Source: Octopus vulgaris (Eukaryota). From it: 64,000 bases of DNA. The stretch covers positions 48,546,001-48,610,000 of the forward strand of contig OX597819.1 in the NCBI GenBank assembly GCA_951406725.2, given 5' to 3'. Under the pieces are notes generated by a model, which did no database searches, was not told where the DNA came from, and saw nothing but the letters and a program-made list of their open reading frames with translations. Of this stretch, positions 23,482 through 44,245 are shown one piece after another; within the stretch, counting starts at the first letter, position 1; every line of letters begins with the position of its first letter. The translations under genes and the position numbers were made by a program.

Positions 23482-23512
<31 letters not shown>

Positions 23513-23545
23513 ATATATATATATATATATATATCTGTCTATCTG

Positions 23546-23602
<57 letters not shown>

Positions 23603-23644
23603 ATATATATATATATATATATATATTTGAGGAAATATATATAT

Positions 23645-26230
23645 TTGACGAAATAGAAGGGGGTATAGCTACACATGGGGTAGAAGACAACTGGACGCTT
23701 CTAAGGGACAACCTGCTGAAAGCCACTGACCAGATCTGTGGCTGGTGCAAAGTCCCCTCAAGACCCAAAATAACGTGGTGGTGGAACAATATTGTTGACA
23801 GGGCTATTAGACAAAAGAAACAGGCTTGGAAGGACTGGAAGAATGGTGGTAGCAGGGAAGTGTATCAGACTGCCAGAAGGGAAGCTAGGAGGCAGGTGTA
23901 TTTAGACAGATGGGAAGCAGATAAGAAAAAATTTGCCAATGTTCTGTGCCGTGAGGATGAAAGACTTGAGGTATTTCATGTTGCAAGACAGTGTGTGAGA
24001 GAGAATTGTGATGTGGTACGAGAGAAATGTGTTCGCAAGGATGACGGTTCACTTGCGCTAAATGAGGATGCAAAGAGAGAGGTTTGGAGACGCCACTATG
24101 AAAGGTTGCTGAATGAGGAAAATGAATGGGATAAAGAGAGTCTACCGAATGTCGACCCAACAGAGGGACCAGCAACCCGAGTTGACAGTTCCTTAGTAGT
24201 TAAGGCAATTACAAGCATGAAAACAGGGAAAGCCCCAGGCCCATCAGGAATTACTGCAGAGATGCTCAAAATATCTGGTAGTGTCGGCTATAACCTAGTC
24301 ACTCGTATAGTTAACCAGGTGATACACGAAGGAGTCATACCCAATGACTGGTGTAGCAGTATAATAGTCAACTGCTACAAAGGTAAAGGTGACGCCCTAG
24401 ATACAAATAACTACAGGGGTATCAAGCTGCTGGATCAGGTAATGAAGGTTACGGAGAGGGTTATAGCCCAACTAATTAGAGAGAGAGTTAGCCTAGATCA
24501 GATGCAGTTTGGGTTCGTGCCAGGGAAAAGTACTACTGATGCTATATTCCTGGTAAGGCAGCTGCAGGAGAAATACCTAGCCAAAGATAAGCCCCTGTAC
24601 CTGGCTTTTGTTGACATGGAGAAAGCCTTCGACAGGGTCCCCCGATCCCTTATCTGGTGGTCAATGAGGAAACTAGGGATAGATGAATGGTTAGTGAGAG
24701 CTGTGCGAGCCATGTACAGAGACGCTGCTAGTAAGGTGAGGGTTGGCAATGAGTACAGTGAAGAATTCCGGATAGAGGTTGGGGTCCACCAAGGTTCAGT
24801 CCTCAGTCCCCTCCTATTTATCATAGTCCTCCAGGCAATAACGGAGGATTTCAAGACAGGATACCCCTGGGAGCTCCTCGATGCTGATGACCTTGCTCTA
24901 ATTGCTGAGTCACTATCAGAACTGGAGGAGAAGTTTCAGGTGTGGAAGCAAGGATTAGAATCGAAGGGCCTTAGAATCAACCTAGCCAAAACCAAAGTCC
25001 TAATAAGTAGGAACTTCTACCATGTTCCAGGGAGAAAAACTAGAAGTAGTTGATAGCTTCCGCTACCTAGGTGACCAAGTCAGTAGCGGGGGTGGGTGTG
25101 CTGAAAGTGTAACTGCTAGAGTAAGAATAGCCTGGGCAAAGTTTAGAGAGCTCTTACCCCTGCTGGTGACAAAAGGCCTCTCGCTCAGAGTAAAAGGCAG
25201 ACTGTATGATGCATGTGTACGTACAGCCATGCTACATGGTAGTGAAACATGGGCTGCGACTGCTGAGGATATGCGTAAGCTTGCAAGAAATGAAGCCAGT
25301 ATGCTCCGATGGATGTGTAATGTCAGTGTTCATAATTGACAGAGTGTAAGTACCTTGAGAGAAAAGTTGGACCTAAGAAGCATCAGTTGTGGTGTGCAAG
25401 AGAGACGTTTGCGCTGGTATGGTTATGTGACGAGAATGGCTGAAGATAGTTGTGTGCAAAAGTGCCACACCCTAGCAGTTGAGGGAACCTGTGGAAGAGG
25501 TAGACCCAGGAAAACCTAGGACGAGGTGGTGAAGCACAACCTTCGAACTTTAGGTCTCACGAAGGAAATGACTAGAGACCGAGACCTATGGAAGTATGCT
25601 GTGCGTGAGAGGACCCGGCAAGACTAGTGAGACCATAACCCGTGGCCTCTACCTGGTATGTAGCCAGTCGACTTATACATACCTTTCCTTCTTGGGACAC
25701 AAAACTCCACTTGTGAAGACCCGTTGAGGCTAGTGAAAATCAAAATCAAACCAAATCAAATCAGATATCAGAAAGCAGAACCAAAATCGAAGTCGATCAA
25801 CATCAATGGAAATTGCAGCTGTGATACCAGTGCCGATGACAAGTAAGCGAACCATCCGATCGTGGCCGTTGCCAGCGCCGCCCCGACTGGCCTCCGTGCC
25901 GGTGGCACGTAAAAAAGCACCATCCGTTCGTGACCATTGCCAGCCTCGCTTGGCCCCCGTGCCAGTGGCACGTAAAAAGCACCATCTGTCCGTGGCCGTT
26001 TGTGGCAGTTTGCCAGCTCCATCTGGCACCTGTGCGGGTGGCACGTAAAAAGCACCCACTACACTCACGGAGTGGTTGGCGTTAGGAAGGGCATCCAGCC
26101 GTAGAAACACTGCCAGATCAGACTGGGCCTGATGCAGCCTTCTGGCTTCACAGACCCCAGTTGAACCGTCCAACCCATGCTAGCATGGAAAGCGGATGCT
26201 AAATGATGATGATGATAATGATGATGATGA
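23645..26230 (+). mobile_element. 5'-truncated RTE-clade LINE (RT ORF remnant 23645-25627, 3' UTR, (GAT)n tail)
   Basis: RT motifs KAPGPSG, NYRGIKLL, QFGF, AFVDMEKAFDRV, GVHQGSVLSPLLF and DADD (from YADD); FRYLG and LHGSETW downstream. Internal deletion with frameshift near 25013; stops at about 25337 and 25517. Confidence 0.97.
23860..25053 (+). pseudogene. Reverse transcriptase domain of the RTE LINE, disabled
   Basis: 397-aa ORF with non-LTR RT motifs; YADD changed to DADD; no endonuclease domain present. Confidence 0.95.
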
Positions 26231-33877: not shown

Positions 33878-34199
33878 AGGTGTGGCTGTGTTGTAAGAAG
33901 TTTCTTTCTCAACCACATGGTTTGAGGTTCAGTCCCACTGTATAGCATTTTGGGCTCAAGAACAAAATGCATTGCCCAGTCCAGGATTTGAAACCAGATC
34001 TTGCAATCACAAGCACAAACACTAAATGCTAGACCACAAGCCTTCGCATGTTATATATATATGGCCAGGAAGCAGTCTTCTTACCACACAGCCACACCTA
34101 AGTCTGTATATATGAATATGTGCAGGTGCGCTTGCATGTCTGGTAAGTTCACCACCATCAATTCACCATTTTTGTTTTCAATAAAATAGTTTTTAACTA

Positions 34200-34591
34200 A
34201 GCATTATTAAATCTCGGAACGGGATGTAAACAGTAATCGCTCGACAATGTAAAGTATAAAAGCCATCTCAATATGGCTAACCACAAAGTGGGGGGTGGTG
34301 TTACTGTAGCTATTTAGCCCCAGGAGATCATTGTCTCCAGCTGGCTTTAGACACACTTTCTGTGCCCTTAAAGTATTTGCAAAGGGAGGCCATCCCTTTC
34401 TCGTAAGCCTGAGTGATACGCACCGGACCGGTTTCGAGATTATTGTCTCTTATCAACGGGCGGTAATCACCAGATCACGATGAAAGACAAGGCCTGTTTG
34501 CAAATATATAAATTTTTTTCTAGTGGCGTCTGCCACTGATTTCGAAAAACTGACTGTAAGCATTATTAAATCTCAGAACGAGATGTAAAAA
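34200..34591 (-). mobile_element. Retrozyme-like element: 359-bp unit plus about 33 bp terminal redundancy, 12-bp TSD, internal hammerhead
   Basis: TSD AGTTTTTAACTA at 34188-34199 and 34592-34603; direct repeat TAAGCATTATTAAATCTC(G/A)GAACG(G/A)GATGTAAA at 34198 and 34557; extensive self-complementarity. Confidence 0.75.
34420..34461 (-). ncRNA. Type I minimal hammerhead motif with two core transitions
   Basis: Minus strand: GCCCG-TTGATAA-GAGA-caataa-TCTC-GAAA-CCGG-TC-CGGTGC. Confidence 0.7.
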
Positions 34592-34607
34592 AGTTTTTAA
34601 CTACAAA

Positions 34608-34939
34608 TACTCTTTTACTCTTTTATTTGTTTCAGTCATTTGACTGTGGCGATGCTGGAGCACCACCTTTAGTCGAGCAAATCGACCCAGGACTTATTCT
34701 TTGTAAGCCTAGTACTTATTCTATCAGTCTTTTTTGCTGAACTGCTAAGTTACGGGAACGTAAACACACCAGCATTGGTTGTCAAACGATGTTGGGGGGA
34801 CAAACACAGACACACCAACACACTCACATATATATACATATACATATATACGACGGGCTTCTTTCAGTTTCCGTCTACCAAATCCCTTCACAAGGCTTTG
34901 GTCAGCCCGAGGCTATAGTAGAAGACACTTGCCCAAGGG
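34608..34939 (-). mobile_element. SINE family A, 5'-truncated
   Basis: Reverse-complement match to the body and tail of family A. Confidence 0.85.
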
Positions 34940-36647: not shown

Positions 36648-36871
36648 TTCATTTAAAGCAGCTGAAAATTCTACAAAACCTGTTATTTGAGTTTGCGTTG
36701 CCGTTCATTGGACAGTTTTAGCAAAAACTGTCCGATGAACGGCAACGCGAAACTTAGAGTAACAGGTTTTGTAGAATTTTCTGCTGCTTTAAATAAAGCA
36801 TATTACTCTACCACTGGTATTTGAGTACTCTTTTTTTCCACCTTGTTTCACATTTATGTGTTTACTCCGGT
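36647..36871 (+). mobile_element. PLE-type fold-back element (arms 36647-36719 / 36723-36798, 3-nt loop, 70-bp tail) with a hammerhead motif at 36728-36765
   Basis: CTGT-CCGATGA-a-CG-gcaa-CG-c-GAAA-CTTAGAG-TA-ACAG; (TA)n on both sides. Confidence 0.75.
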
Positions 36872-36889
36872 ATGTATATATATATATAC

Positions 36890-39218
<2,329 letters not shown>

Positions 39219-42284: not shown

Positions 42285-44245
42285 TATAAACAATAAATTA
42301 AATAAAGAGATTCAATTGACAATCCAATAATTTATTTATATTATAACATAACATATTATGAATATAATATAAGATAACATTTAAAAAAAATCATTAAAAA
42401 ACCCAATAGAGCCAACAATTTGCTTCAACTTATATACATTATTTGATTTATAAACAATTCATATCCACTTATATAAGTCTCTTCAGAGCTTTGGTTTATA
42501 GACAGACAAAATTCCATGTCAAAGGATGGCAGGATTGTAAAAAACTCAACTGAAATGCCTATGTATTATAATAGACAAAGATTGTTTCAACCTAGGTTGC
42601 ATATGAGGTGCAGCAACATCGAAGGAAAATTAACCGAGAAGATAGCTTTTGTGTGTGGCATATGCACAGGGACAAATAGACACCACAGATACTCAGAAAA
42701 CAGATTCCATCACACTCCAGGGGAAGAAACTAGAAGTAGTTGATAGTTTCCGCTCCCTAGGTGACCAAGTTAGTAGTGGCGGTGGATGCTTAGAGAGTGT
42801 CACCACTAGAATACGAATAGCCTGGGCAAAGTTTAGAAAGCTTCTACCTCTACTGGTGACAAAGGGTCTCTCGCTTAGAGTGAAAGGTAGATTGTACAAT
42901 GCATGTGTGCGAACTGCCATGCTTCACGGTAGTGAAACATGGTCTGTGACTGCAGTGGACATGCGTAAGCTTGAAAGAAATGAAGCTAGCATGATCCGCT
43001 GGATGTGTAATGTCAGTGTGCACACACGACAGAGTGTAAGTGCCCTGAGAGAAATGCTGGACATAAGAAGCATCGGATGTGGCATGCAGGAGAGACGTTT
43101 GCGCTGGTATGGTCATGTACTATGGATGGATGAGGAGAGATGTGTGAAGAAGTGCCACTCCCAAACAGTTGAAGGAATCCGGGGTAGAGGTAGACCCAGG
43201 AAGACATGGGATGAAGTGGTGAAGCATGACCTTCGAACGTTGGGCCTTACAGAGGCAATGATGAAAGACTGAGATCTCTGGAGATATGCTGTGACTGTGA
43301 AGACTCGACAAATGACGTGAGTTCATAGCTGTTTCCTGCACCAGTTTCACATAGCAGCCCCAGCCCATCCAAAGTACTTTGGATCGCAGAATGGCCTGCT
43401 GTGCTTACCTCGGATCGTAGGGTGACCTGATGTGCTTGAGGAGACCTATTGAGTCAAGTACATCAACATCAAAATAAAAATCAAATGGAAAATTGTAGTT
43501 GTGATACCTGTGCCAGTGGCACGTAAAAAGCACCATCTGAATGTGGCCGATGCCAGCGCCGCCTTGACTGACTTCCATGCTGGTGGCACGTACAAAGCAC
43601 CAACCGATCATGGCTGCTGCCAGCCTCCCCTGGCACCTGTGCCGGTGGCATGTAAAAAGCACTCACTACACTCACTGAGTGGTTGGCATTAGGAAGGAGA
43701 TCCAGCTGTAGAAACACTGCCAGATCAGACTGGAGCCTGGTGCAGCCTCCTGGCTTCCCAGACCCCCAGTCAAACCGTCCAACCCATGCTAGCATGGAAA
43801 ATGGACGTTAAACGATGGTTATGATGATGATGATATATAGAAATATATTTCAATAGTTGTAGATTCTAATTACTTGATTATTTTGTCCATTATAATTTTG
43901 TTGTTTTTTTAATTGTAATTGTCTATGAACCAAAACTCTGAAGAGACTTATATAAGTGGACATGAATTGTTTATAAATTAAATAATGTATATAAGTCAAA
44001 ACAGATTGTTAGCTCTTTTGGTTTATCAATGATTTTTTATGTTATCTTATATTATATTCATAGTATATTATGTTTTTTTTATAATATAAATAAATTATTG
44101 GATTGTTAATTAAATCTCTCTATTTAATTTATTGCTTATAATTTGCATTATACACATATTTATGTGGTATTCAACTGACATGCCAGTGAATTGGATGTTT
44201 TACATACCCCTTTGAAGGAATTCCTTTCCTTAGCTTGTTACTTTA
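42285..44245. mobile_element. PLE-type element with about 220-bp inverted arms (42285-42504 / 43920-44140), interrupted by an RTE; hammerhead motif in each arm
   Basis: Two-arm consensus AGCT-CTGAAGA-GACTTATATA...TATATAAGTC-GAAA-CAAATTG-TT-AGCT (43934-44014 on +, 42410-42490 on -). Confidence 0.8.
42600..43835 (+). mobile_element. 5'-truncated RTE LINE (second subfamily)
   Basis: HMRCSNIEGKL..FVCGIC, LHGSETW, RLRWYGH, GRGRPRKTW; 3' UTR and (GAT)n tail. Confidence 0.93.

Follow-up and report, generated by a model that had tools for sequence, protein, structure and literature searches.

Animal non-LTR retrozymes are non-coding repeats with units of 150-450 nt (350-390 nt in mussel) and a GC content below 50% that carry a type I hammerhead ribozyme, occur as head-to-tail copies between target site duplications (TSDs) of more than 4 bp, and share their genomes with Penelope-like elements (PLEs); those of coral, mussel, and axolotl yield circular RNAs (Cervera & de la Pena 2020, PMC7229834). 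Both this class and the idea that PLEs act as its helpers are already in print (PMC7229834; bioRxiv 10.64898/2026.07.22.740005), and the support so far for what moves animal retrozymes consists of co-occurrence and of the homology of frog retrozymes to PLE pseudo-LTRs (pLTRs). Among the features of PLEs themselves are partial tandems, a 5'-truncated copy in inverse orientation, and, at one end, a tail of 30-40 bp (Craig 2021, PMC8557442). The PLE protein, when purified, introduces nicks into either strand of an AT-rich target and begins synthesis at two internal RNA sites that delimit this tail; ribozyme cleavage is unnecessary for insertion in vitro, where uncleaved RNA is the main substrate (Frangieh 2024, PMC11167929).

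Here, we compare with these systems an insertion at 34188..34603 of the window, i.e., of the whole 64,000-nt stretch of octopus DNA that was analysed. The insertion lies between exact 12-bp TSDs (34188..34199 and 34592..34603), the left of which shares its final two bases with the first two of the start site described below; if one mismatch is allowed, the duplication measures 18 nt and overlaps the truncated end of the element. Between the TSDs, a minus-strand unit of 359 nt (34198..34556; 41% GC) is followed by a second-round overshoot of about 33 nt (34557..34591), with 34198-34230 repeated at 34557-34589 at 94% identity and a spacing of 359. The unit is non-coding, with a longest ATG open reading frame (ORF) of 36 aa, and corresponds to a multi-hairpin RNA. 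The TSD, the unit with its partial repeat, and the lack of an ORF had all been recognised in an earlier, sequence-only reading of this DNA, which had also proposed a retrozyme-type insertion whose reverse transcription set out at a distance from the ribozyme and covered more than one unit. This interpretation was borne out, as the insertion belongs to a family of non-LTR retrozymes and its synthesis ran from the site S1 for 359 plus about 33 nt.

We number the unit q1-359 from window position 34198, so that the minus-strand ribozyme reads in the direction of decreasing q. The outer fixed end of the family, S1 (34198..34203, minus strand), is the probable start of reverse transcription in the window copy, which is a simple 5'-truncated copy of 392 nt with one hammerhead. 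The inner start site and second fixed end, S2 (34246..34248, minus strand), is unused by this copy. Between S1 and S2 lies a tail of the PLE type as defined by Frangieh 2024 (34200..34247, minus strand), which contains a small conserved hairpin. The overshoot ends at the variable, reverse transcriptase (RT)-stop side with short microhomology to the target and simply marks where synthesis stopped. A very high-copy SINE-like repeat (34608-34900) adjoins the right side of the insertion.

The minus-strand unit is predicted to fold at -110.5 kcal/mol, which is better than chance (z -4.9), and the plus strand reaches z -3.7. A long stem around the ribozyme, TATTTGCAAA/TTTGCAAATA, as well as GGAGA/TCTCC and AGTGGC/GCCACT, were located where the sequence-only reading had placed them. 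The further helices it had drawn fared less well: GGCTAA/TTAGCC occurs at the positions given but is unpaired in the minimum free energy and alignment structures, and TAAAGCC/GGCTTTA is a single site (34343) read on two strands.

The proposed minus-strand hammerhead was recovered with the Rfam model Hammerhead_HH9 at 34403..34474 (33.4 bits, E 4e-6, a score under the Rfam gathering score of 52), and its type I assignment is also backed by covariation. Rfam at E 0.05 reported no hammerhead in eight loci, a blank that carries no information because known family members were missed as well, and a two-strand fold of the ribozyme gave no clean double hammerhead. On the minus strand, the core UUGAUAA, with a U3-A8 pair, occupies 34456-34450, followed by helix II (34449-34436), the GAAA (34435-34432), and a palindromic helix III (34432-34427), and the predicted cut falls between 34426 and 34425. 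This core had been described correctly and had then been taken for two transitions in a probably inactive ribozyme; that judgement does not stand, as U3-A8 is family-wide and compensatory. Among the 30 closest loci, two of which overlap, U3 and A8 occur in 38 of 38 hammerhead segments, and the exact U3-A8 context has 110 matches against one for its C3 version. A degenerate pattern for the U3 subfamilies gave 316 matches, the first 100 of which, with core types tallied by hand, all have U3, combined with A8 in 56 and with G8 in 44. A second pattern for a sister subfamily gave 227 matches, and the first 100 of these comprise 97 C3-G8, one U3-A8, and two mismatched cores, so that the canonical-core relatives named beforehand as a check are present as the C3-G8 subfamily.

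The pattern of change across subfamilies points to a maintained structure. Positions 3 and 8 are paired in 30/30 aligned units (UA 14, CG 10, UG 6), two pairs of helix II change on both sides (A-U vs G-C) in 14/30, and a C/A mismatch at the base of helix II marks the C3-G8 subfamily (10/30), tallies that reflect a few inherited events rather than 30 independent ones. U4, G5, A6, and A9 are invariant in these units and position 7 is variable; the family possesses, as is typical of non-LTR retrozymes, a type I hammerhead in which core and helices are conserved. Helix III, of 2 bp, carries a palindromic loop that occurs in three forms across subfamilies, an arrangement that functions as a dimer. 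The U3-A8 pair is a natural covariation of active hammerheads (PMC3088659) and has been found in the hammerheads of schistosome PLEs (PMC4209133); UUGAUAA is thus a known compensatory variant and not a product of decay. Because positions 3 and 8 remain paired throughout, helix II shows double changes, and helix III stays palindromic, the ribozyme is, judged by these patterns, evidently under selection. The natural C3-G8, U3-A8, and U3-G8 subfamilies form a ready-made series for gauging the activity that such a ribozyme needs.

A genome search with the unit returned 3,385 first-look candidates, and the 40 that were scored share 89-96% identity over the main match; identity to the window copy goes down to about 75% among subfamilies. 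A conserved 15-mer of the unit has 6,780 exact matches vs 4 for a control, a count that is inflated, as 51 of the first 100 matches are a passenger fragment inside another repeat and the other 49 represent 35 true retrozyme insertions. Extrapolation gives roughly 2,400 insertions with the exact 15-mer, a lower bound drawn from one contig, and the family probably comprises thousands of copies. As in the retrozymes of PMC7229834, the unit is non-coding, of low GC, and without LTRs, and head-to-tail copies with at least two hammerheads occur (8/86 insertions, same strand, by a loose motif), which are the tandem multimers that the earlier reading had listed as a further check. The octopus family differs in consisting mostly of dispersed partial or inverted copies, with no more than about 2.5 units in the loci seen, and in its non-canonical cores (U3-A8, U3-G8). 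Circular RNA is documented for the retrozymes of PMC7229834 and is a prediction for the octopus family.

Two further repeats touch on this family. A repeat of ~400 bp with a hairpin and a CTAG end (L282-L368, e.g., L285 around 1240-1640), which by this signature we take to be Helitron-like, carries a tiny inverted S1+S2 retrozyme that has its own 10-11-bp TSD and has been amplified with its carrier to thousands of copies. L194 and L198 contain a distant 358-nt tandem repeat of similar layout that has, by eye, a hammerhead-like core with U4C and is also hit by the LINE described below.

An indication of the mobilising enzyme comes from the insertion ends. Our main set of 120 loci, half of them top matches and hence biased to long copies, represents 91 distinct insertions, 86 after exclusion of five interrupted by a LINE. 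These have 128 outward-facing RNA-3' ends, of which 69 fall at S1 (q350-9), 51 at S2 (q46-52), about 47 nt away, and 8 elsewhere, and 44 opposite (RT-stop) ends that are scattered. Inverted copies make up 42 of the 86, and all 34 with two classifiable ends combine one S1 with one S2 end (p about 1e-10); the other eight have one end elsewhere. The same holds for the 38 pattern-sampled ones in this set (51/54 ends at S1 or S2; 13/13 inverted copies S1+S2) and for a ribozyme-independent sample drawn with the 15-mer (31 true insertions after removal of 49 passenger copies, two shared with the 120-locus set), in which 46/47 ends lie at S1 or S2 (28/47 at S2) and each of the 16 inverted insertions among the 31 uses one site per end. 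The end sites are identical in the canonical-core subfamily, at 73-87% identity. The sequence-only reading had expected circularly permuted start points; the family has two fixed start sites instead (46/47 ends in the unbiased sample), a feature of which we found no mention in the available portion of PMC7229834. The one-site-per-end rule of inverted copies was not encountered in the literature searched. In the unbiased sample, 14/47 RT stops lie within q181-205, at a strong hairpin beside the long stem.

These footprints closely resemble those of Poseidon_Ac (PMC11167929) and of Neptune-type PLEs (PMC8557442), which likewise have a tail flanked by two neighbouring internal start sites, a hammerhead upstream of these sites, inverted 5'-truncated arms, partial tandems, and AT-rich or (TA)n targets. 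The retrozyme differs from them in having no ORF, a tail of about 47 instead of 30-40 nt, and a longer helix I, and it has no sequence match to the seven PLE ends tested. In the in vitro experiments of Frangieh, as far as the accessible text reports them, the choice of start site showed no difference between strands, whereas the genomic retrozyme copies use one site per end, a rule that bears directly on the origin of PLE tails and inversions, which was left open in vitro. Our conclusion on the helper class agrees with that of Li, Clavereau, and Pollet for vertebrate retrozymes (bioRxiv 10.64898/2026.07.22.740005); theirs is based on co-occurrence and pLTR homology and ours on an invertebrate integration footprint without pLTR homology, which points to PLEs and names two RNA sites.

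Candidate helpers are abundant in this genome, with 6,136 GIY-YIG candidates of which 150 were scored. A young PLE family (L125:1268-4968, L122-L137, L141), presumably Neptune-like from its cysteine linker, combines a 479-aa upstream ORF with a 781-aa RT-GIY-YIG ORF that is intact in many copies (98-99% identity) inserted in (TA)n. Its 3' repeat contains a minimal hammerhead with a UUGAUAA core (U3-A8) and palindromic helix III, and downstream of this hammerhead it has two 3' ends about 39 nt apart, one each in 2/2 inverted copies. A second coding family also has a hammerhead-like core followed by two 3' ends, here about 50 nt from each other. Of its four inverted copies, 3/4 combine the two ends, and the exception, L139, has the tail at both; for both families together the rule holds in 5/6. 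Short (TAC)n runs often precede (TA)n at the ends of the second family (L375-L394). Other PLE families (L095, L107, L108, L112, L113, L119) have hammerhead-like 3' motifs, many with U3 and a palindromic helix III. Comparison of the retrozyme with 30 PLE loci found no alignable homology beyond chance words, and the seven PLE ends share no terminal sequence with it (best p 0.013 of 21 tests). From the clean TSD and the location outside (TA)n, the sequence-only reading had suggested a mobilising enzyme different from that of PLE-type elements. The ends obey the PLE tail and inversion rule and 27/86 copies touch a microsatellite, (TA)n or (TTA)n, which speaks against this suggestion; what stands is that the two sampled coding PLE families insert almost only in (TA)n, so that the helper may be another PLE family.

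The remaining copies, two thirds of the total, lie in unique AT-rich DNA, and here the TSDs invite another explanation. Their median is 12 bp in 20 inverted non-microsatellite copies vs 4-5 in controls, and at least 8 bp is reached in just 8/35 non-inverted, non-microsatellite copies, a low share that counts against the PLE reading; in an empty-site test on DNA runs, repeats swamped the signal and the joints listed were uninformative. A SINE-like retroposon moved by an AP-endonuclease LINE (L1, RTE, or the Tx1-like family), its inversions arising via twin priming, could be considered instead: duplications of 10-16 bp in AT-rich DNA, and inverted copies, are compatible with L1-type integration as well, and such LINEs are abundant here. 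However, the retrozyme has no poly(A) or simple-repeat tail, its inverted copies bear at their outer ends two different fixed internal sites, S1 and S2, an outcome that twin priming by L1 does not predict, and the Tx1-like LINE inserts at a fixed target of its own inside the unit, so we regard this origin as very improbable. Scarcely better placed, and still improbable, is the reading of the copies as solo pLTRs or 5'-truncated ends of an autonomous PLE with the unit as its terminal repeat. It would agree with an end structure that matches PLEs and with the resemblance of Xenopus retrozymes to pLTRs (bioRxiv 10.64898/2026.07.22.740005), yet what lies upstream of the unit is the unit again and no ORF (43/87 arms), an RT plus GIY-YIG ORF was found neither in the unit nor continuous with it, and of 141 loci searched by tblastn with the PLE ORF, five matched, none with an ORF continuous with the unit. 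At L189, a retrozyme unit interrupts a decayed PLE. Widely spaced hammerhead pairs were considered as pLTRs of a coding PLE, and one of the two tested proved to result from the insertion of a LINE and the other apparently from local duplication.

We therefore consider it likely that the insertion is a non-coding hammerhead retrozyme mobilised in trans by a PLE RT/GIY-YIG protein, probably from circular or uncleaved multi-unit RNA. The nature of the template can be approached through the arms that span the ribozyme, 43/87 of which run beyond the unit junction, up to 886 nt in the longest arm and 2.5 units in seamless tandems. A ribozyme-cut linear monomer would stop the cDNA at q228, and just 1/47 stops in the unbiased sample lies near there (q224-233), which leaves a circle or an uncleaved multimer. 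Contigs of four runs that we took to be RNA cover the unit, with a drop in depth near the cut that tracks subfamily divergence, and bear neither on expression nor on circles. A PLE could also have copied a linear, uncleaved transcript of more-than-unit copies, or jumped between templates, with the ribozyme being weak or serving another role and no circle involved. Such a route would suit the dispensability of cleavage for PLE insertion in vitro (PMC11167929) and the fact that each subfamily is off-optimal at one place (U3-A8, U3-G8, or C3-G8 with the helix II C/A mismatch). Units within one insertion are, moreover, no more alike than neighbouring copies: divergence within insertions is 4.1% (tandem) and 3.8% (inverted) vs about 3% to the nearest copies, and private sites shared within an insertion number 60 vs 946 differences, some alignment artefacts included. 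Against this, 5' truncation would shorten the element in each round, but arms longer than one unit are still present in subfamilies with as much as about 25% divergence; the stops of the second round do not pile up at a fixed 5' end; and circles are formed by other animal retrozymes (PMC7229834). The loci fetched contain no long source array and the stops reveal no fixed 5' end, so that the balance leans to the circle, which we favour slightly as the template, and the linear route seems conceivable but doubtful.

For the PLE-mobilised retrozyme, we propose the following course. The ribozyme, with its 2-bp palindromic helix III, would cut mainly as a dimer, at loci where two hammerheads stand in tandem, and the 359-nt monomer would be closed by a host ligase. 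The scarcity of insertions with two same-strand hammerheads (8/86) and the lack of cleavage in 8/9 Xenopus dimers (bioRxiv 10.64898/2026.07.22.740005) count against this step. The PLE enzyme would nick the target on either strand, the nicks being separated by about 12 bp, and cDNA synthesis would start internally, at S1 on one strand and at S2 on the other. Joining of both cDNAs would give an inverted copy, and capture of one a simple 5'-truncated copy as in the window.

The retrozyme is in turn the target of another retrotransposon. Several Tx1-clade LINEs insert into a repeated sequence at a constant position, as do Tx1 (in Tx1D), Keno (in U2 genes), and Tx1-Mar (in Mariner), and their known targets include DNA transposons, snRNA genes, satellites, and microsatellites (Kojima 2015, PMC4494074). 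In L172:2699-7971 (G000:C1:68,120,698-68,125,970), a LINE of 5.3 kb lies within a retrozyme copy and encodes a zf-CCHC ORF1 followed by AP endonuclease, RT, and zf-RVT domains. Human L1 ORF2p is its nearest solved relative and Argonauta hians provides its sole species-named homologue, in a search that gave almost no names. Classed by its domains rather than by an RT tree, the family, which also occurs in L192-L241, appears to be L1/Tx1-like. A search with its 3' end gave 234 candidates, and in the best 30 examined, the query included, 30/30 3' junctions fall at one 14-bp site, far above the 20% of flanks by which Kojima recognises a fixed target. Of these, 27 continue into the retrozyme family at q287, 2 into the distant 358-nt hammerhead-like repeat at the equivalent position, and the remaining one into the bare target motif, with a retrozyme upstream. 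The target, empty in the window copy (34468..34481, minus strand), lies just upstream of the hammerhead, 56 nt from the predicted cut site, and the TSD of about 14 bp on both sides is spelled as in the host subfamily. The LINE copies are 95-99% alike and their flanks 65-97%, and one flank varies with the other (rho 0.86) and only weakly with the LINE (rho 0.14-0.17), which indicates independent site-specific insertions.

With Tx1-clade LINEs the octopus LINE shares the L1-like ORF1 zinc knuckle, the AP endonuclease and RT, and the fixed site in a multicopy repeat with a TSD of about 14 bp; its hammerhead retrozyme target was not found among the targets in the accessible part of PMC4494074. A LINE targeting a retrozyme was not found in the open literature searched, and the word 'ribozyme' does not occur in the available main text of the octopus repeat annotation (PMC13282606). 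A LINE that targets a ribozyme element would represent a new target class for sequence-specific retrotransposons. In 20/20 long LINE copies with a visible upstream flank, the host passes the unit junction, vs 43/87 otherwise (p 7e-6), and transcribed copies may be preferred. In R2, rDNA and an HDV ribozyme serve as promoter supply and end trimming. We tentatively envisage three layers here, a prospect that is far from assured: a circular-RNA retrozyme, a PLE dimer that primes one strand per RNA site, and a retrozyme-specialised LINE that uses the host promoter and hammerhead 3' trimming.

A second insert with a zf-CCHC ORF (L174:2456-4084) occupies the same retrozyme site, has no blastn match to the first LINE, and is possibly a second family sharing this target. 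In L176:4398-5830 and L234:891-1325, 5'-truncated LINE ends adjoin either (TA)n or a retrozyme arm in inverted orientation, the S2 end being normal, and these could be LINE-retrozyme composites moved via the PLE route. Elsewhere in the window, fragments of LINE reverse-transcriptase ORFs that are RTE-like by eye occur at 23482-25053, 36825-37646, and 42646-43272, and identical ORF-length stretches recur ~8,010 bases apart between 45500 and 62000 (46978/54987; 48484/56493), a recurrence that points to a recent duplication in tandem or to a duplicate created by the assembly.
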